Assembly: GCA_046563655.1 (NCBI GenBank)
Contig: CM102290.1
Location: 5,642,001-5,706,000, forward strand
Length of the DNA: 64,000 nucleotides
Reading direction: 5' to 3'
Source: Yuukianura sp. NJ FZ-2021
Lineage: Eukaryota
Positions within the stretch are counted from its first letter, which is position 1. Each line of letters begins with the position of its first letter. A program made the position numbers and the translations under genes. The notes under the pieces were generated by a model. That model saw only the letters and a program-made list of their open reading frames with translations. It was not told where the DNA came from and did no database searches. This document shows, piece by piece, positions 264-26,159 of this stretch.

Positions 264-1250
264 TCAGGATATTCTGGAGCAGCATCCTTCCGTCCAACTG
301 CTGTTTGATCTGGAGTTGAGATTCACACCCAAGGGACCTGAGGATGAATCGTAATGTGACAGAGGTTCTTTCGCTTTTGCTTGCTGCGGGATACAAATGA
401 CAATCAATTAGTTACATTTTTAGTTGAACAATTGACGAGTAGTACATACCTCGATAAGGGCATGAGCGATTTCTGTAAATAGTTTCTCAACATTGTCCGC
501 TTCCTTGGCCGAAGTCTCCATGAAGTACATGTTGCTTCGCTGTGCAAAGTCCTCTCCGACGTATGTCGGGATTTCACGATCTTCCCGGTCAGTTTTGTTT
601 CCTGAATAACAATGACAGATAATTAAAAAAATATGGCAGCCATCAGGAAATTGCCAACTCACCGACGAGGACTCTCAGAACTTTTGCATTTGCGTATTCC
701 TCAATCTCCCGTAACCACTCTGGCAAACAGTCAAACGTTGGTTGTGAACTGACGTCGTAGACCAATATCAAACCATGAGCTGATCGGTAGTAACTCTGCG
801 TGATGGACCGGAATCTCTCCTGACCTGTCGATTCCATAACGTTTTCAATGACATTTTATACAGGAGATTAAATTGATATTGGATTACCTGCCGTATCCCA
901 AATCTGCAACTGAAAATATCAAAGTCTAACGTTTATGTCTTAGTTTCACACTGCTGTTGATGTTAGGCAATTAATTAGAAGTACCTTTACTATTTCTCCA
1001 TTGATGTCCACTGATTTGATCATAAAGTCCACTCCAATTGTGGATCCTTGGCCTGGTGGAAAAAGACCCTGTAAGGACCAACAGATTACAAAATGAGTTT
1101 TCGGTATTAGGAGTGACATTATCGTTAATCAAGTGTCGAAATAGGAAGATGACTGATTGTAACCTGTGTGAATCTCCTAACGAGACAAGTTTTTCCAACA
1201 CCAGCATTTCCAACCAAGATCACTTTGAATAGGTACTTGTAGTCTTCCAT
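264..1250 (-). CDS. Rab30: Rab30 small GTPase (6 coding exons)
   Basis: The spliced frame reads MEDYKYLFKVILVGNAGVGKTCLVRRFTQ...[21 protein letters not shown]...GNKTD...ETSAKEADNVE and ends in the prenylation motif CCSRIS*. Introns are GT-AG. Confidence 0.95.
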
Positions 1251-10449: not shown

Positions 10450-10705
10450 AACTGAAATTGAAATATAGAAATATTAAGAAAAAAACGAAATTGAAATACT
10501 GAAAAATTGAAACCTTAAATTGAAATATTGAGAAATTGAACGACTGAAATTGAAATATTGAAAAAAACTAAAATTGAAATATTGAAAAACTAAAATTGAA
10601 ATATTGAAAAACTGAAATTGAAACATTGAAAAATTGAAAAACTGAAACTGAAATATTGAGAAATTGAAGGACTGAAATTGAAATATTGAAAAACTGAGAT
10701 TGGAA
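10450..10705. repeat. AT-rich degenerate tandem repeat (~22-bp, aaaactgaaattgaaatattg)
   Basis: Repeated aaattgaaatattgaaaaact units between the ASB start and the SMC3-like stop. Confidence 0.8.
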
Positions 10706-10745
10706 TATTGCCCGCCTCGTCCTCCATTTCGCCCTCCATTGATTC

Positions 10746-13700
10746 CTACGGTGTGACGTTATCTTCGTCAGTGTCAGCTTGTTGTTGGGCGGGCCGTCGT
10801 CGGGCGGGCAATTGTTGGGCTGCCCACGGCGGGCCCCAAGTACGAGGTGGTGAATTCGGTGGAACAAGGACGAAACCGGGCGGGGGTCCTCTCACAATGG
10901 CGGAATTGTCTCCCAAAAACTCCAACTGCAAAGCCTCCTGGACACTGATTCGTTCAATCGCGGTTGTCTGGAAGAAATGTCAAGGTCATTAGACTCCAGT
11001 CTTAAGTGCAGCAATTAGTGTAAGGAATTTGGTCAACAACTTACAGTCCCAGTTGTTTTAACGTAGAAGACTCGGTCAGCCACACTCACGAAATCACGAC
11101 TAAATGTCGTACAGAAGAACTGAACATTGTCTCGGTTTCCAGTTTGTTTCAAAAGGCGTGCGACGCTTCCGCGATATTGTTCGTCCAAAGCCTACATCAA
11201 AAATGACCTCATGAAAAAAAAAAGTTGACCTCGTGACGATAAAAAACGTTGACCTCTTCTTACCTGGTCAATTTCATCGAACAAGTAGATCTTGCTGGGA
11301 CACGAGTCCTGAACAGCCAGAAGAAAAGCAATGGCCAAAACTGAGCGTTGTCCTCCAGAAAGTGTGCGAATGTCATGCCGAATGTCATTTCTTCCAATCA
11401 GCTCCAACTTGGCTCCAAGAAATTTCACATTGCCCCAGGCAGCTTCACTCTCCGCCTACAAAACAATGGAATCTAAATCCGGAGGGATCTAGATCCGGAT
11501 TTATTGAACCGGATTTGGGATTTATCCTCAGAATATCCGAAATCCGGATTTCAAAATGTTGAATCCCGATTTTCCTTTGTATATGTTGGTATTAGCGGTA
11601 ATAGAAAATTGGATTTTGATGAAAAACGAGAAGAAATCCGAAACCGGATTTCCGGATAAATCCGAAATCCGGATTTGAGATCCCTTTGAACTCGTAAACA
11701 TGAGGAGAGTGAAATAGATTGAAGATTCATTGGCTACTCACGTCTGGTCCAGCGTTGGAAGTACTCAGAGAGTACTCCTCATTCTCATTTTCACTGTAGA
11801 GCGTTAACTCGGCCCTCTTGTTGTCATGGTGATTGCCACTCCCTGTGGCAATTTCAGTGTAAATATCCGGAAAGATGATCTGGATGTTCTTGATGATCCA
11901 CATGGAAAGACTTGGTCCACAGTCAACGATCAACTCCACAACTTCCTTGGCTCTCTCCAACCTAAAAGTTCAAATAAGTTATTGAACTTGAACAATTTGA
12001 ACATTTCAATTCCAACTTACGATTCCTTAGCTTGGAAAAGTTGATCCTCCAATTTCGCCACTTCAACACTGATCTTGTCGAGATTCAGAAGGCGTCGGAA
12101 TGGGAGTTCCGCTTTTTTGAGCTCCTCCTTGATAGCCAAGAGTTCTTTGAACAAATCTGTAGAGGATTTTGCGAATTCGGGCATCGTGAGCCCAGTTTCC
12201 AAAGTCAGTTCAGTTTCGTCTCTGCCCAGTTTCCGAACTTTATCCAGCAGAGATCGTTCCAGTTCTCCAAATCGGTCGTACCATGCTGCCTCCAGATCAG
12301 CTTTTGCTTTGACCAACTTTTCTGAACTTTGATGTATTAGCTCTTGAGTTTTTCCAATTTCGTCAGAAAGATGCTTCTCCTAAATTTTTTTTGAAAAACT
12401 TGAATATTGTTGAAACCCGAAGGGACATAACGATAAGCACGCCAACATGTAAAAGTTACCTTTGACGCAGCAGCAGCTTCCTCTGCCTCAAGCTTCTTCA
12501 ACGTTTCCAACAGATTGAGCTTCACCTTCTCTTCATCTTCCAAAAGTTTCTGAATATTGGCAAAACTCGTCCAATTTGCCGCAAGGTTTCCACTGCCAGA
12601 GCTCCCGGCACTCGAATTCCCCATGCTAAAAATCAAATAACACAACAATTATTATTTTTTTATAACAACTGAATTCTAGAAAATGAGAATTTGAAAATTT
12701 TTTAAATCTAAAAAGTCGTTTACGCAGAAGCCAAGTATCTCCGTTGCAGCCGCAGTCCGAGCACTTCCTTCTCCAGTTCCTTTCGTTCCGTCATCACTTT
12801 TTCGTATTCCAGCTTCGCTGCCGAAAGTTTCTTCTTTTCTTCCTCCCGGGCAGCAACGGGATTCTCTCCTGGTCTCGAAAATTCGTTTCGAATGTCCTCT
12901 TCAATCAAATTGATCCGCTCTCTCAAAATTTGCTCCGCTTGACGCTTTTGGGTCACCGCAATCAACAGATTCGGCAGACGAGCTTCGGCTGAAGCAAGTT
13001 CAGCAATCAGTCCGTCGCACTTCGTTTTCAGGGCTTCGATTTCCAGCCTAATTGTAACAAAAATTTGAAGAGAAAAAAATTTTAAGTAAAAGTAAAGATT
13101 TGAAGTAAATTTGAGTAAATTTTGGTACATTGTGTGCTTTCACTCACTCTAACTTTGATGCTTTCATTTTGATTTTCTCCAACGCAGCAATCCGAGCTGA
13201 ATTCTGTTGAGTACAAGTAGCTTCTTCCTTGTTGACCGCCTTCAACTGCTTCACAAGTTCCGTCTGCTTCTTCAATAACTCCACTTTCGTCTTGTGAGCT
13301 CGAAGGACTGACTTTGCAGGGTCCCGATATCCACCTAAGTTCAATCAAAATCCTTAAGTGAGTCTGACATACCCTTAAGGGCCATAATCAAGGTTCCTTG
13401 ACAACGAAAAATGAATTTTTTTAACAGGTTGAGTACTACCTCGCTTGTTGACAAAAAATAAAACAAAAATTATTGGTACCAATCCAAAATATTGGTACCA
13501 TCGTATGTAAAATTTAAAAAATTTGGCTCTATTGTTATGACTACGATACCATGGAATGAAAGACACTCTTTTTTTTTTTGCAAAATGAACAAAACATGAG
13601 GTATTCCTCAACCTGTTAATGCAAATCAAAGTCACCAACCTTGGCGCTAATGACCTTGACTTGATTAAATATTGAAGTCTGACCTGTAATAGGGCCGTTG

Positions 13701-16677
13701 CTCCTCACAGTGTCTCCGTCGATAGAAATAAAAGTGGCGCGAATTTTTGGATTCGGTTTAACTTTAAAGACGTCTGGAACGAGCAAGTAGTTGTTGAAAA
13801 TCAGTCCCATGGAATTTGCCACCTCCGGTCTGTAGTTCAATTTTTGTACAAGACGTTCCGCACGTTTCATCCGTACATACTGGTCCGGTATGGCTTTGAA
13901 TTGTTGAATATTCCCTTCCACGAGGACGTTTATTTCGCCAGGATACTTCCTCATATTGTACTCTTTGACGATCCGATTCCCGGTGAGCCGACTGTCCACT
14001 ATGTGGTGATACATCTTCTTAGCAGCACTCACTTCCACAGCAGTCTCAAGTTCCTCCGGTACAGACATTATGTTCTCAAACACGACGCCATAGTAACCGG
14101 CAGCAGCAGCCCTGTCTTCTGCATTGGCCGAACGACGGAACGACTCGATTATGAGAGGAACACGACTGTACGATTCAAAGTTGTAGCCCATGTACATCCT
14201 AAGAGAAGTGTCCACTTGACGTAACTTATCTCTCACGGTGTCCAGCTCACGCTGAACTTCAGCTTTTCGGTCCCATACCTGTAAAATATATAGTCATAAA
14301 CATTATTTACTGATTTATAAACATGGATTATTGAATTTAGGTTATAAATAATTTATAGAAACTTATAGAATTTATAGAAGTCCTGTCCCTTTTCGCGAGA
14401 GCGGAAATCCATTTTGTTACGGCTCTCGCAATTGGTCGATTTCAAATCTGTGACGTCACTCTCCAAACTTATAGAAATTGTGAGCCGTGTCTGTAAATTC
14501 TGTAAATCCTATAAGTTTCAAAAATGACGTCACTACCTGCCCTAAATTGTATACTTTCTATAAAATTCTATAAATTCTCTATAAATTTATACTTTCTATA
14601 AAATTCTATACTCTCTATAAATTCTATAATTTCTATTAGGGATGCCGCGATGAATCGTTCGAGCGATGAATCGCCCGCGATTCACCCCCTTTCGTGTTTT
14701 GGGCGATGCACTAGAATCGCCCTTTTTCAGATATGAAGAATCGCTTGAATCGCGATTCATCAAGCGATTCTAGAAAATCAGTTTTTTGCCCATTTCTCCA
14801 CTTATTTTTTGAAATTTTGAAGAAATTCGAGCCGGTGTAAACAATTTTTTGCTGAAAATTGTGGCTTTAGATTAGGTTATTAGTTTAAACAACAGCATGT
14901 AACTAGGAAACACACTTTTAACCCATAATTTCCATACGGAGATAGTGAGAAACACCAGGCGCCTGGTGGAAACGTCATTCATTTGGAACGAATGGTGAAT
15001 CGCGATGCATCGCGATGCAAAACGGCGATGCATCGCGAAGGCGATTCAGGAGGTTGTAAGAATCGCTGAATAGGCGATGCGGGAAAATCCTCGAATCGCG
15101 GCATCTCTAATTTCTATAAATTCTATGCCTTCTATCAATTCTATGCTTGCTTTCTATAAATTCAATAATCGCTATAAATTCTATAAACGATATAAGATAC
15201 GTACGTCGTTACAAGAAACTTGTGGGGTTTTGTTGATATTGTGCAGATCCATTTTGTACCCCTCTATCTTGCCCCGGTTGTCCGAAATCAGCGTCCAGTT
15301 ATCCTGCAATTCCTTAAGCACTGAAGCGATACCGTCTTCCTCCTGTTGGAATTTTTGTTGAGCCAATGTTCCTTGCTGCTTCACGTTCTCCAACTCCATC
15401 TTCAACTTCTCAAGGTCAGCTGTTTTCTTCTTCTTCAGATTAGCCGCGTTGGCTACCGTTCCACGCCCAGCTACCTCCATCAGAAAGTCCACTTTGGCAA
15501 TGGATTTGGCCACTTTGGAATACGTTGCTTCTTGTTTAGCTTCCAGACTCTTGAGCTGGACTGCCTTCATGGCCAAGTTGTCTTCAACTGTGCTCAACTC
15601 CTTAGTCACATCGTCACAAGCTGCCGGTGGAGAAGACATTGTGCGGCGAGGCAAATCGTTCTTGAGGGCAGTGACACGCTGAATAACGGAAGTGAGTCTC
15701 TCATTCATCCTTTCCTTCCGAAGTGTCAGTTGGTTCAGTTCTCGAGAAACTTCGGTCAATTGAGAGTCCTGTTCACCCAACTTCCGGTTCATAACGCCAA
15801 CATTTTCTTGAAGTCGACCGATCAGATCCAAAAACTTCTTGGATTTCGGGCCAGCCTGGTCACGTCTCTCCTTGTGCTTCAGGAACTCCTTGAGAACGAT
15901 GCAGAAGTTGAGAGTGTCGCGTTGTTGTGTTAAAGCCTGGTGTTTCGTAATGACATCTCTATCGTCTTCGTATTGTTTCAGTTCCTCCTCAATATACTCC
16001 ACTTCAAGCTCAAGTAAGGTCACGTTGGTTTCGTATGGTGCGACTTCATGAAACAATCCGGCCTTCCACTCTTCAGTTCCTTTGAAGTTGGTAAGTTCCT
16101 TTAACATCTTCAAGCGTATTCCATCAGCATCAGTAGCAAAGCGACCAATGTCCCCTTGATTGATCTTGTAAATGCAATTGACAGCTTGAGATATGAGCAT
16201 AGGGTGGTGCTTTGGATCGAACTGTTGGCCATTCAAGTAGAATTTCGGGGCTCCCGTCTTTCCGAATTCGCACTTGAACGTAGCACGATCCGGAAGAGCG
16301 TAGTCTTTATTCCTATTATCCAGCTCCACTTGGATATTTGCAGTGCCGTTGTTCATCCTTCGATTTGCATTAGAGACGAGCTCATGGACAGCCTTCTCAT
16401 TCATGCGCCCCAACGTGTTCGACAGAGCCTGCAAATGTCAGAAGTGTTACTGCAAGTCGACTGTTAAACGTTATCAAATAGTCTATAAGTCTATGATAGA
16501 CTTATAGACTAAGATGGACTTATGACAACTTACGACATCGATGGCTTGGAGTAGATTGCTCTTGCCGGCTCCGTTGGGACCGATAATGACATTGAGTCCA
16601 GTAAGAACCGGATCAAGTAAGCGCACCTCGTTCTGATGTCCCTTGAATCCACTGACCTTGACCTTGGTAATGCTCAT
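10746..16677 (-). CDS. Divergent SMC3-like (cohesin) ATPase, ~11 exons, roughly 1250 aa
   Basis: Walker A GPNGAGKSN, Q-loop YKINQGDI and long coiled coils. SMC3-type hinge GYYGVV...AVEVSAAKKMYHHIVDS...PGEI...SIDGDTVRSNGPITGGY. Signature LSGGQRSVLAIA, Walker B/D-loop YLFDEIDQALD and SMC3-type QFFCTTF. Confidence 0.88.
11483..11685. mobile_element. MITE in an SMC3-like intron (AGGGATCT TIRs, internal ATCCGGAT motifs)
   Basis: Inverted termini agggatctagatccggattt ... aaatccggatttgagatccct. No clear TSD. Confidence 0.6.
13375..13659. mobile_element. Palindromic MITE family member (inverted copy at 37500-37797)
   Basis: Termini caaggttccttgacaacg ... gtcaccaaccttgg and inner inverted repeat ttaacaggtt/aacctgttaa. 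Collinear similarity to the reverse complement of 37500-37797. Confidence 0.8.
14340..15190. mobile_element. Repeat element with tttataga/ttctataaa arrays (related copy at 45110-45470); hosts a nested MITE
   Basis: The core gtgacgtcac..tttgaaatc..ccaat..gagcc is shared in reverse complement with 45210-45280. Flanking (aaattctata)n arrays. Confidence 0.65.
14637..15109. mobile_element. hAT-type MITE with 8-bp TSD
   Basis: TIRs TAGGGATGCCGCGAT / ATCGCGGCATCTCTA, perfect flanking duplication ATTTCTAT and subterminal gaatcgc motifs. Confidence 0.9.
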
Positions 16678-21689: not shown

Positions 21690-22079
21690 CAGGGTTGCTG
21701 CTTTTTTTTAATTAAAAATCATGATTTTTTTTACTGTATTCGAGATTTTTTTTATTTAATCAAGATTTTTTTTGATTTAAATCAAATATACAATTTTGCA
21801 CGCTTAAGACCGAGAAAAATGGAAGTTGTCAATTTTACAAGCACCAACTACTTTTAGATGACACATCATCAGTTTAAAAATAGTCAAAGTTCAGTCTTTT
21901 AGAAAAATTGAAAACGATAAAATACTTTTTTTTTTCACGAAAAATTGTCGGATTTAGGCGAAATTTTGCTGAAAAAGCAAATTTTGGTCAATTTTGTGTA
22001 TTTGATTTAGGCATTGATTTAAAAAAAATTGATTAAATCAATGATTTAAATCAGCTTGCTTTAAATCAAAGCAGCGCTG
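21690..22079. mobile_element. hAT-type MITE (same family as 34623-35041, inverted)
   Basis: Termini cagggttgctg / gcagcgctg, 7/8 TSD ctttaaat/ctctaaat and subterminal gatttaaatc motifs. Confidence 0.8.
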
Positions 22080-23275
22080 CTCTAAATTGAAGTGAATTTG
22101 GTTGCGGGGATTAGGGTACTTTAATTGAATTGGAGGTGGGTACTATTCCGGGGGATTATGGAACCCTGAATTGAGTTGAAGGGGATTAACTGAAAGTGGG
22201 CTAGACAATGTTAATTCGGTATGTTGTAAATGTGTTTTGTTGAATTCGGTATGTTGTAAATGTGTTTTGTTTTGATGTCATAGGTCAGAAGGTATGATAG
22301 AGATGAGTTGTTGACTGTGTTTGGAGATGTGAGAGAGTGTTTGAGGGAGGAGAGAGGGGAGAGATGAAACAATGGACCAGAAAGGAATTAAGGCTGTGAA
22401 ATGTTTGCGTCTTGCGAGATGTGGGTCATCATGCCTCCTGCCCACCTTCCTCCCCAACAATTGCAACAATCACTCCCCTCTCTGCCTTACAAGTCCAAGT
22501 GGAAAGTGGGCCACTGACCACTTGACACTTCCCGGGAGTCGGAGGAAGTTGTCACTTCCCATCCACTTATCATTAACGGAGATGGACTCTGAGCTACCCG
22601 AAGAAAGGCCTTTCCTAGTACTCTCTTAGTCACTCTACTCCTAATCACTCTAGACTGGAAATGGTCCGTTCAAAAGAGGCTGGCAACATGATTAGTCAGG
22701 CTCAACACAAAGTCCACGATGTCATCATGCTCCAACTGACTTCGGACTGACACGCACATTAGTCAACAAATCTCCTACATTCTTCCTCTCAATCTCTCTG
22801 ACCTTGTCATCTGTACAGGCAGGCGGGCAGTTGGGTTTGCAGGCAGGCAGGAGGTCAAATACCCAGGGGAAGAGTGGAATAGTCAAACTCTGGATCCGGA
22901 ATCTGTGAAGATCCGGAGTTTGACTATGCTAGTTGCGGGCAGTTTTTGGTGTGGAGGGAGGGAGTTGGAGGTCAAGTGCCCGGAGGAAGAGTGGAGACAG
23001 ATTCCAGATCCAGAGTTGTTAATTCGGCTGTAAGTTGAGAGGATGTGGAACTGTACCTGGATTATTCTAAAGAGTGGAACCCGTGTCGGGGAAGAAGGGG
23101 AAATTCCAACCCCCAACTAAACCACGGACAGTCTGCCCCTCTCCGAACAACCACTCTCTCCCAACTGATTCAGTTGACTCTTACCAGCCTCAGTAGCAAC
23201 TACTCTCCTCTTCCCTTATCAACAACAACAGTGACTGTGACCTCTGTGACCTCTCTCCCCCCGCCCCACTCTTTC

Positions 23276-23774
23276 ATGAGTTCAGTACTTTTGAATCTAA
23301 AGACCGAGTCCAGTCCCATCCCTTTCCCCACTTATGCCTCCCCCAGTTCCGGAGGTGGCAGTGTGGGCAGTCCCAGTGGCTGTGGTGGGCCCAATAGTGC
23401 TGAGGCTAAAATGTTTCTGTCCCACGGCGGAAGACCCACCAAAGGAAACGGCCGGAAGAGGAAGGGGGTGGACGAGTATGCAGCCGAAAATCGGATTGAC
23501 TTTACTTCGCGGTCTATAATTCGAGATGGGCAGTTGGTTCGGATTTTGGTGTGTCGGTTTTGTTGTCAGTCGATCGGAGCAAGGTCGGATCGGATCAAAG
23601 AGCATTTAGCTAGCAAGAGACATCAGAAACTGAAGTTGGAAGCATTTCGAGAGGCAGCAGAAGCAGGGCGTGACTTGTCCACAGAGTACAGTGACGACAG
23701 TGCCTCAGGCCTTCTACCCGAACCACCGATTACGATGCTCAAGTTCCCTGGAAAAGCATTGGCTCACTTGCTCG
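23276..23774 (+). CDS. BED/CGGBP1-like C2H2 zinc-finger exon (candidate 5' exon of the BTB gene)
   Basis: NLS GRKRK followed by LVCRFCCQSIGARSDRIKEHLASKRH. ATG at 23276, with an alternative phase-1 acceptor at 23231. Phase-1 donor G|gtaaac at 23775. Confidence 0.75.
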
Positions 23775-24537
23775 GTAAACGCATTCTCATTTTTTCGGAA
23801 ATCCCTCGGGGCTAAAACTGAAACCCTCCGGGCTTAAGTCGGGGCATTTAACAACTTTTATTGTCTTTTCGGTCCGAAGGGCCGCCGGGTATTTGGAAAA
23901 AGAAGGGCGGGTATTTAGAAAAAGAAGGTGATGGGGGCGGGTATTTCGAAAAAAAATGGTGGGGGGGGGGTCTTGAGAAGGGGGGGGCCAAGAAGAGGTT
24001 CACACTCACCTACTTTCGATATGCTAATTCCCGTCTTTTTTCGCAGTAGTGGCCAAGTAGGAATGACTATCCTCTGAACATCTCTTGTCCACGAGTCCGG
24101 TTCTCACAGATTTAATTCAACCACTCAACTTGTGCCCATTTTTTTTATTATCTGCTCTACTACGACGTTGTTCGGACACTTTTAAATGGGCGGGCGGGTG
24201 ACCCGGATGAGGGGAGCGGGTAAATCAGGGCTTAATTGAGCAGATTGATTCTGATTGGCTTGATTGCGTGAGTCAGAGGGGGAGAAAGTTTTGGTTTGGG
24301 GAGACTGTTGCCATGGGGATGATCTCTCCGATGACACCCTGCCCTGCTTTTTACTGTGATAACCTGATCCAAGACTCCCATCTTCTTGACCTCTCAGAGG
24401 TTATCACTCCCCTAACTTCGGATTCTCTTTCTAAATGTGAGAGTTGTTAACTGTGAGAAAGAGACTAAATTTAGTCTCATGCAGACTAAAAATGAGTCCC
24501 ACTTCAGTCCGATTAATATTTGAACTTTGTTTTTCAG

Positions 24538-24636
24538 ATGGAGAGCAACAGCGAGAAGGGAGACAGTCATCACATGAGTTGACGCCCGAACCAGAGGAAC
24601 GGAGACAGTCCATGCCCACCCCGCCCCCACTCAGAG
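24538..24636 (+). CDS. 99-nt symmetric phase 1-1 linker exon of the BTB gene
   Basis: ttttcag acceptor and G|gtaatt donor around the open frame DGEQQREGRQSSHELTPEPEERRQSMPTPPPLR. Confidence 0.65.
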
Positions 24637-26159
24637 GTAATTAAGAGTCTAATTAGGTGGGTATTCCCCAGTGGGGACTGGGTATTCCCCACTTCCACCT
24701 TCAAATCCCCGTCTTCGGATGGAAAGTGAGGGGAATGAGATGAGCCACTTGTTGGATTTGTGCACAGACCTAAGCACATTCTTCACGTTCCACTTTCCAC
24801 AGATCTGGTGGGGGAGGGTCTGGCAGGGGGGGGGTTTGTGTAGCAAGAGAGTGTATTAGCCTGGGGAGGCTGCTGTAACCAGGACACACTCCGCCAGTCG
24901 GGGTCAAAGGCCTCCGGATTAGTCCAGACTCTTAGTATTTAATGAGTGATAGACTTCTGAAGTATTGCGAAAGCCCTTCAAGTCCCCCCCCCCCGTAAGA
25001 GGGGGACTTGAGGGTCGTAGCTCGTGTCAACATGGGCATGAGATGCGTCCGTGGGATTGGCTCATGCTCTCCTGTGTTCCCAATCTTCCAATCTCCAAAA
25101 CCCGTTCTGTGTGAAGAGAAATTGAGGATAGCGGAGAGGGAAGTGTGGGGTGGATTTGTGCTATTTCGTGCCATAGCTTTACTTATGTACTTCATATACT
25201 GTGCAAAAATGAGAATGATGTTAGTAAATCCTTCTACTTTGGCCTTCCATTGTGTTAAAGTAGGGACTCTCCTTCCTCTTCCCACCAAAGTCCCACACTC
25301 ACTCACCTCCGATTTCTTTTTCTTACCTTGACTAATAGCCCTACCCACTCCCCATTTCTACCCGCCGGGGATTTGATATTACCCGGGTTTTTCAAATTCA
25401 GCAGTTTTAGCCATCTCTTCCGCTCTTTTTTTTTGTAAAGTATTGTTCTTGTAGACTGGATTTTCCTGTCGATTTGAGTCCATTCCAACCTGTTGAACCA
25501 CTCAGATCCCCCCATCTTGTCTGAATACTTTCTCCCCCTGAGGTCAATTCTCATCCGATTTGTGTCATTTGGTTCAAGTGTGTGACGAAACACATGGACT
25601 GAGAGAAGTGTTCGCTCTGATTGTTCGGATGAGAGACGCCTCAAGTTGATGTTGATGGTGGAGGGTGGTTGGGAGGGTGGATCTACCTGTTGCAGGAGGG
25701 AAGTCAAAAGGAAACCGAATCTCTAACCCCCCCATCTCTCAACCCCCCCCCCCCTCATCCGTATCCCCCTCCACCAACCGAAACCACTCTGATGGCTCCA
25801 CTTGACTTCCTCCGAGGGACTAAAATTATTCACCCCCTTGAGGAGCAGTTGGACACGCTCCTCTGCTCCCCTCTCGCAACAGGTCCATTTCAACTCTACA
25901 CTCTCTTTTCCTTGTTTTGAAGCACAACAAGTGGGATCCACTTTACACAATTTAGAACCGAGCCACAGATCCGCTTCGGAGGGAGCAGGATTAGAAAAAC
26001 ACTTCTCTCTCTCTCAAATCACTTCAAAACACACCAACTCAAAAGAGACAAACACCAATAAACTCCAAAACTTTCAACTTCACAATTTTGAAATATCACT
26101 TTTTTAAAATATAGGAAAACCACAATTTCAACAAGTTCAAAATGTAGGAACATCCACGA

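Follow-up and report, generated by a model that had tools for sequence, protein, structure and literature searches.

A predicted, extremely diverged SMC3-class gene with Gly-Ala in place of the acetylated lysine pair

Few eukaryotic proteins are as constrained as SMC3, and acetylation of its K105/K106 lysine pair is the central switch for stable cohesion. Specialised paralogs of SMC proteins are known: SMC1beta, a vertebrate meiotic paralog of SMC1, and DPY-27, a C. elegans paralog of SMC4, each replace the canonical subunit in a dedicated complex. Here we describe a gene that appears to descend from SMC3 itself, predicted on the minus strand at positions 10746-16677 of a 64-kb stretch of the Yuukianura sp. 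NJ FZ-2021 assembly (contig CM102290.1, positions 5,642,001 to 5,706,000; hereafter the window). SMC1beta and DPY-27 come from other SMC classes than this SMC3-like gene, and SMC1beta is much closer to its parent than the gene is to SMC3.

The initial annotation named SMC1beta and DPY-27 as the known specialised SMC paralogs; that list omits SMC3B of Daphnia pulex and the extra SMC3 of Anopheles. In the available excerpts of Schurko et al. (2009, PMC2680839), Daphnia pulex has two SMC3 genes. One of them, SMC3B, groups with a duplicated Anopheles SMC3 on a long branch that does not fall within the animal/fungal SMC3 clade; the authors propose a unique function. Compared by that published description, these copies resemble the gene studied here in being pancrustacean, in being intact with a hinge and both ATPase ends, and in lying on a long branch outside, or unplaced relative to, the animal/fungal SMC3 clade. 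They differ from it in two ways within the same excerpts: Daphnia SMC3B has 14 exons rather than 11, and a coexisting canonical SMC3 is shown in Daphnia and Anopheles, whereas here one locus is known from the 64-kb window alone. Divergent SMC3 copies have thus been known since 2009, and this gene adds another example. Literature searches on SMC3 in springtails and Collembola turned up no report of an SMC3 paralog, one on Folsomia, meiosis and cohesin returned nothing relevant, and no follow-up to the 2009 Daphnia and Anopheles copies was found in the searches made.

Gene structure and SMC class

The predicted coding sequence runs on the minus strand from an ATG at 16677-16675 to a TAG at 10748-10746, exactly the limits first proposed for it, and comprises 11 exons, 3780 nt and 1259 codons with the TAG as its single, terminal stop. 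The initial annotation had described a full SMC layout with DEIDQALD, a TTF switch and a hinge, in frames that stay open over about 11 exons; all of these features are present in the model. All ten introns begin with GT and end with AG and measure 59-926 bp, the donor of intron 5 (GTAAAC) being the weakest and least consensus-like of the ten. Chance origin is no concern for a 1259-codon frame bearing these motifs. The exons and the motifs they carry are as follows, with amino acid (aa) numbers referring to the predicted protein and slashes marking exon boundaries.

16534..16677, minus strand: exon 1, aa 1-48, with the start codon and Walker A GPNGAGKS (aa 33-40, at 16558-16581)
15205..16428, minus strand: exon 2, aa 49-456, the rest of the N-terminal head lobe and the first coiled-coil arm
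16237-16266, minus strand: stretch equivalent to the KK region, FGKTGAPKFY, in exon 2 (aa 103-112)
16156-16158, minus strand: Q-loop Gln139 in exon 2, within YKINQGDI (MAFFT alignment)
13684..14278, minus strand: exon 3, aa 457-654, the end of arm 1 and the hinge domain, with the Pfam hinge at 13772-14098
13148..13334, minus strand: exon 4, aa 655-716, the start of arm 2; ITG/GGYRDPAKS corresponds to canonical LTGGYYD..RKS
12724..13047, minus strand: exon 5, aa 717-824, coiled-coil arm 2
12460..12625, minus strand: exon 6, aa 825-880, arm 2, with a Gly/Ser-rich stretch, MGNSSAGSSGSGN
12021..12379, minus strand: exon 7, aa 881-999, arm 2
11742..11961, minus strand: exon 8, aa 1000-1073, transition from arm 2 to the C-terminal head lobe
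11264..11455, minus strand: exon 9, aa 1074-1137, with LSGGQ at 11348-11362 and Walker B IYLFDEIDQ at 11264-11290
11045..11191, minus strand: exon 10, aa 1138-1186, with the D-loop ALD at 11183-11191 and the TTF switch at 11102-11110
10746..10967, minus strand: exon 11, aa 1187-1259 and the TAG, covering the end of the head and then a proline-rich tail of about 50 aa

The motifs for ATP binding and hydrolysis are all kept, namely Walker A, the Q-loop Gln, LSGGQ (at aa 1105), the DE of Walker B and the D-loop. Walker A reads GPNGAGKS where canonical SMC3 has GRNGSGKS, and Walker B with the D-loop, IYLFDEIDQ/ALD, gives IYLFDEIDQALD at residue 1129. The same IYLFDEIDQALD stands in the octopus, Carabus, P0003 and P0007 SMC3 rows, while fungal SMC3 has DEIDANLD, and a fungal SMC2 (P0081) and a prokaryote-type Smc (P0102) both have DEVDAALD at the D-loop. 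In the switch region of exon 10, QFFCTTFSRDF aligns with QFICTTFRTDM of yeast Smc3, and in the PDB search VQFFCTTFSRDFVSVADRVFYVK is matched to yeast AQFICTTFRTDMLQVADKFFRVK. We take DEIDQALD, together with the Phe that replaces the switch His (QF..TTF), to be diagnostic of SMC3.

Domain searches place the gene in the SMC family, and searches of solved structures point to SMC3. Pfam SMC_N was matched on the open reading frames (ORFs) of exon 1 (E 9.4e-9, with AAA_15 at E 3.9e-10), exon 9 (E 1.2e-8) and exon 10 (E 9.1e-6), and SMC_hinge on exon 3 (E 1.5e-11; 45.2 bits against a cut-off of 22.5); in tblastn, exon 1 is 39% identical over 49 aa to octopus and Carabus SMC3. When four exons (2, 3, 9 and 10) were searched singly against all PDB chains, SMC3 was the top match class for three of them. 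The hinge exon 3 gave 20 matches at E <= 1, of which the first seven are SMC3 (best, human, 6.3e-13) and the next class is SMC2 at 2.2e-3. Exon 9 gave 25 matches with SMC3 in the first seven places (best 1.4e-7), and all five matches of exon 10 are SMC3 (best, yeast Smc3, 4.4e-8). Exon 2 matched weakly, first to an unrelated coiled-coil protein (0.018) and then to human SMC3 heads (0.043-0.045, over YKINQGDIGRFATDADGIRLKMLKE), so that SMC3 is its best SMC match, at E 0.043. Another SMC class was considered for the gene and rejected, since SMC3 leads in the PDB rankings.

The hinge exon was also modelled with AlphaFold2; the model has a 48-residue entry helix and a predicted local distance difference test score (pLDDT) of 96.3. 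In a Foldseek search with this model, ranks 1-10 are all SMC3 hinge chains, with template modelling (TM) scores of 0.70-0.80, and the first SMC1 hinge chain appears at rank 14.

In a full-length comparison the spliced protein is colinear with the canonical 1204-aa SMC3 P0007 (blastp, aa 1-1198 against 1-1193, 24% identity), and its arms have the lengths of canonical SMC3 arms. Canonical animal SMC3 (human SMC3, Drosophila Cap, octopus P0094 and Carabus P0095) shares this colinearity, at 1163-1217 aa compared with 1259 aa here, as well as Walker A, the Q-loop, LSGGQ, DEIDQALD and the TTF switch, and the predicted hinge fold is nearest to that of SMC3. The differences are an overall identity of about 24%, Gly-Ala in place of KK, a QRxALLHEG segment that is not kept, and the extra proline-rich tail. 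The tail is without counterpart in canonical SMC3, only 7-11 residues of aa 1201-1259 being paired. On the sequence evidence, then, the gene is best described as SMC3-class, intact and extremely diverged.

A 15-bp GC-rich repeat at 10782-10820 codes for part of the proline-rich tail.

Divergence, relatives and the acetylation site

How far has the gene moved from SMC3? Its N-terminal head is 27-28% identical to the SMC3 of octopus, Carabus, P0007 and Penicillium, while octopus and Carabus share 88% and octopus and Penicillium 71%. For the C-terminal head the figures are 30-35%, compared with 78% (octopus-Carabus) and 60% (octopus-Penicillium); for the hinge, 26-37% compared with 58% and 45%; and for the arms, 17-23% compared with 48-51% and 30-32%. 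Over heads, hinge and arms, therefore, the gene is further from animal SMC3 than fungal SMC3 is, which bears out the earlier statement that it is far more diverged than animal SMC3 normally is.

The initial annotation had also allowed for a lineage that evolves fast in general. The two neighbouring genes tested speak against such a lineage. The whole Mad/SMAD protein of the window (33.7-35.9 kb) shares 76-83% identity with 16 Mad sequences, which come from insects, crustaceans, myriapods, chelicerates and others. In single-exon searches, Drosophila Mad is matched by the MH2 exon at E 3.2e-35, and human TAF1 by one TAF1 exon of the window at E 3.9e-29. The best named matches of the MH1 exon are from the springtail Allacma fusca (87-88%, E 5e-56 and 5e-54), with the next named taxa at about 1e-48. 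When scores were summed over the whole Mad gene, Allacma came first with 780 bits, the other 15 queries scoring 637-774; a second Allacma copy scored 738 bits and the other named taxa 637-706. By this one gene, the source would be a springtail-like hexapod. Since Mad and TAF1 are normally conserved, a general fast-lineage explanation is unsupported at this locus.

We searched for relatives with a full HMMER scan of the hinge exon against 1.84 billion cluster representatives, which gave 93 matches at E <= 1e-3. Only two of them are close relatives: P0001 (300 aa; 37% identity to the hinge exon, E 3.9e-33) and P0002 (562 aa; 35%, E 1.9e-26). The next match (3.4e-14, 28% identity) is a canonical SMC3 that is 76% identical to octopus SMC3. 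P0001 and P0002 are 37% identical to one another and look like fragmentary, single-ORF predictions from unannotated eukaryotic DNA. The hinge-end motif ..DGD......G..TG occurs in 40 of the 93 matches, and P0001 and P0002 alone lose sense directly after TG, at the position of the phase-1 intron 3 of the SMC3-like gene; one canonical SMC3 fragment breaks two residues beyond that position. Both relatives read through the position of intron 2 without interruption, and P0002 has an apparent break near aa 130, where the SMC3-like gene has none. Conservation of the hinge with P0001 and P0002 comprises 46 invariant columns among those listed, with a mean column identity of 45%. Because the two are close to the gene, are 37% identical to each other and break at the same intron 3 position, the sequences indicate that a small, deep, fast-evolving SMC3-like clade exists, made up of the gene, P0001 and P0002.

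This clade did not turn up from annotated proteomes: the hinge profile run against longer proteins recovered canonical SMC3s only (9 of 7999 candidates), and exon 2 run against longer proteins scored none of 4788 candidates. Metagenome scans by the hinge profile and by exon 2 gave no relatives, and a search of the ESM Atlas with P0002 returned generic SMC-hinge clusters only.

A further diverged protein, P0022 (1165 aa), is a full-length SMC3-like sequence that shares 30% identity with octopus SMC3 and has degenerate ATPase motifs: Walker A reads GENDSGKA, LSGGQ and the DE of Walker B are missing, and SY replaces KK. This suggests, from its sequence, that diverged and possibly catalytically dead SMC3 derivatives occur in other organisms.

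The acetylation site was compared in a MAFFT alignment of 17 rows. The canonical rows have RRVIG-[AS]KKDQYFL or something near it, with KK in all 9 animal, fungal and P0068/P0083/P0090 rows. The SMC3-like gene reads KCEFGKTGAPKFYL at this site, and KK (human K105/K106) aligns to Gly107-Ala108. Moving the one gap in the alignment gives no Lys pair back. Several further diverged SMC3-like rows are also variable at the KK position. The second segment singled out initially, QRLALLHEG, is likewise lost: KAVHELVSN stands opposite canonical QRQALLHEG, as FGKTGAPKFY stands opposite IG-[AS]KKDQYF, so both of the replacements first noticed in this region were recovered in the alignment.

Candidate roles and competing explanations

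What kind of SMC3 descendant is this? With moderate confidence, we read the gene from its sequence as a functional, very fast-evolving SMC3 descendant, most likely a paralog in a springtail-like hexapod whose genome also has a canonical SMC3. Paralogy is favoured by the control genes and, by analogy, by the precedent of Daphnia and Anopheles. The case for a working SMC ATPase lies in the intact nucleotide-binding motifs, the SMC3-type switch and D-loop, the SMC3-like hinge and arms of canonical length. The protein would then still fold as a head-arm-hinge SMC; its hinge would pair with an SMC1-type partner, ATP would be bound at composite head sites, and a kleisin would bridge the heads to give a variant cohesin.

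In yeast and human, the SMC3 lysine pair is a DNA-sensing basic patch that promotes ATPase activity and release, and Eco1/ESCO neutralises it, blocking Wapl-Pds5 release. Since KK is the Eco1/ESCO switch, the Gly-Ala variant should be beyond regulation by that acetylation; by analogy, it may behave like a permanently uncharged, acetyl-mimic SMC3 that is insensitive to Eco1/ESCO. Poorer DNA-stimulated ATPase activity and poorer release would then make this cohesin intrinsically stable, or leave it to be controlled in another way.

Several points weigh against reading the gene as a functional, acetylation-independent paralog. The exon boundaries are predictions from DNA alone. The alignment behind the hinge model was built from 74 SMC3-like matches, which leans the model towards SMC3. 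We infer acetylation independence from the aligned sequence, and K105 and K110 of the predicted protein flank the Gly107-Ala108 pair, so an alternative acceptor lysine is possible. P0001 and P0002 are without an N-terminal head, so the KK region falls outside both. A tblastn search with octopus and Carabus SMC3 found no second SMC locus within the 64-kb window. Finally, the tree is permissive. It was a quick IQ-TREE run under LG+C20 with posterior mean site frequencies (PMSF), on 31 rows and 473 head-plus-hinge columns, and its outgroups were the fungal SMC2 P0081 and the prokaryote-type Smc P0102 (PDB-verified), with SMC1, SMC4, SMC5 and SMC6 left out. In it the gene and P0002 are sisters (Shimodaira-Hasegawa-like approximate likelihood ratio test, SH-aLRT, 94) and lie on the SMC3 side of a branch with 99% SH-aLRT support against SMC2 and prokaryote-type Smc. 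Within the SMC3 group, however, their placement is an open polytomy, with end branches of 1.73 and 1.70 and an internal branch of 1.25 that call for a long-branch warning. Constraining the pair with five animal SMC3 rows cost 21.06 log-likelihood units, with a p-value in the approximately unbiased test (p-AU) of 0.061, which is borderline and does not reject that grouping. The tree thus supports, for these sequences, an SMC3-like assignment over SMC2 or Smc, and nothing finer, which recalls the placement that Schurko et al. obtained for Daphnia SMC3B.

If the gene is a functional paralog, where might it act? Persistent rapid divergence is typical of germline and meiotic paralogs, and fast evolution over the three deep clade members on that account suggests a germline-type role; by this analogy, a germline-restricted role is our best guess. 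A more specific proposal can be framed, although we doubt that it holds in full: a springtail-dedicated, fast-evolving cohesin whose SMC3 subunit has kept its ATPase and lost the Eco1/ESCO switch. Such a complex would be acetylation-independent and Wapl-insensitive, would act in germ cells (springtails have unusual chromosome elimination and achiasmate divisions in which it might be used) and would possibly contain a co-diverged SMC1 or kleisin; in the extreme form of the proposal, its SMC3 would be the only one of the lineage. If true, a long-lived, ATPase-competent SMC3 derivative without KK would be a natural experiment on the acetylation switch and on how cohesin behaves in its absence. 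By analogy with Daphnia and Anopheles, a third lineage whose relatives have features of gene structure in common with it suggests that specialised SMC3 paralogs are a class either recurrent or old in pancrustaceans.

It is also conceivable, if unlikely, that the gene derives from SMC3 but acts outside cohesin, as a neofunctionalised SMC ATPase in another complex, for instance as a homodimer or with new partners. At only 26-37% identity to SMC3 in head and hinge, the surfaces that bind SMC1 and kleisin may be lost; the KK patch through which cohesin is regulated is gone, exon 11 adds a novel proline-rich C-terminal tail, and the databases hold other highly diverged SMC3-like proteins, some of them ATPase-degenerate as in P0022. 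The kept arm lengths and colinearity, however, are what would be expected if a partner of SMC1 length had been retained, and the predicted hinge is nearest to SMC3 hinges of SMC1-SMC3 heterodimers, both of which favour a cohesin subunit.

More improbable, in our view, is that this drastically diverged gene is the only SMC3 of its lineage and that cohesin there works without the Eco1 switch. The absence of a canonical SMC3 from the 64-kb window would fit, as would a lability of SMC complexes in Collembola, for which the available excerpt of King et al. (PMC6759200) reports the loss of all three non-SMC condensin II subunits. Yet the neighbouring Mad and TAF1 are normally conserved, and the three clade members are 35-37% identical to each other, a rate unlike that of an essential sole subunit. 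Canonical SMC3 is highly constrained, as the 88% octopus-beetle and 71% octopus-fungus identities of the N-terminal head illustrate; in the part of a sawfly study at hand (PMC13239252), SMC3 is mostly single-copy and has the lowest ratio of nonsynonymous to synonymous substitution rates (dN/dS) of the cohesin and condensin genes, 0.0122. Moreover, in the excerpts on Daphnia and Anopheles (PMC2680839), the long-branch copies coexist with a canonical copy in the genome.

That the gene is a decaying or neutrally evolving duplicate, a young pseudogene whose frame is open by chance, is very improbable: its extreme divergence, and an extra contig of about 91% similarity over 12307-12747 in run X1 that hints at more copies, would suit such a duplicate, but the frame of 1259 codons stays free of stops in all 11 exons, each of the ten introns has canonical splice sites, no catalytic motif is damaged, what the gene shares with P0001 and P0002 centres on a hinge fold modelled at pLDDT 96, and so large a divergence with an open frame needs long-term purifying selection.

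Neighbouring genes, repeats and sequencing contigs

Pfam searches on the ORFs of the window identified the following neighbours.

423-674, minus strand: Ras-family GTPase
4.5-6.5 kb, plus strand: CitMHS-type transporter
7.2-9.7 kb, minus strand: gene with ankyrin repeats and a SOCS box
18.2 kb, minus strand: exon with a CUE domain
21.1 kb, plus strand: FLYWCH domain
26.9-28.2 kb, plus strand: BTB domain
31.3 kb, minus strand: Rad60-SLD/ubiquitin-like domain
33.7-35.9 kb, plus strand: Mad/SMAD
47.0 kb, plus strand: chitin-binding CBM_14 domain
49.6 kb, minus strand: NDUFC2
51.4-60 kb, plus strand: TAF1

The SMC3-like gene sits amid arthropod-type genes on one contig, and a contaminant or symbiont origin was rejected on that ground. 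A tandem second SMC copy in the window was likewise rejected, the 64 kb containing a single SMC locus. Neither a kleisin nor a second SMC gene was seen among the window ORFs of at least 75 aa, and Rfam gave no match over the whole window. The block at 22000-26000 has a G+C content of 0.48, compared with about 0.41 elsewhere, and contains ORFs without a Pfam match: one of 258 aa at 23039-23815 (plus strand) and others at 24932-25722 (minus strand).

The introns of the SMC3-like gene carry repeats. In intron 3, positions 13389-13610 form a very high-copy repeat, with a summed contig depth in run X1 of about 46,000 compared with about 220 in the flanking exons; the many variant letters, joints and A-rich loose ends in this segment suggest an element resembling a short interspersed nuclear element (SINE) or a miniature inverted-repeat transposable element (MITE). 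In intron 2, a 6887-bp X1 contig of normal depth (218.6) joins 14626 to 15108 and skips the 481 bp of 14627-15107, with 10 letters that fit both sides. Tandem repeats of the TATAGAA type lie on both sides of the skipped segment (14543-14636 and 15112-15195). The skip has the look of a polymorphism for presence or absence of the segment, or of a repeat that the assembler collapsed.

Over 12307-12747, a stretch of exon 6 and intron 6 that reaches into exon 7, run X1 contains an identical contig at depth 185 and a second one of 444 bp, at depth 73, that differs in 39 letters and has 11 gaps. The variant contig may represent a diverged allele, or part of a second gene copy elsewhere.

Runs X1-X4 (organism A) and run X5 (organism B) carry two labels and come from two studies, with essentially identical exon sequence. 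DNA contigs from X5 show no difference from the window in seven of the eight pieces listed (of 323) and one difference in the remaining piece. This near-identity makes the divergence between the two unusable for dN/dS.

About 35 bp beyond the stop codon of the SMC3-like gene, in what is presumed to be the 3' untranslated region, an array of AT-rich tandem repeats (AAATTGAA-type; units of 8, 22 and 30 bp) occupies 10453-10710.

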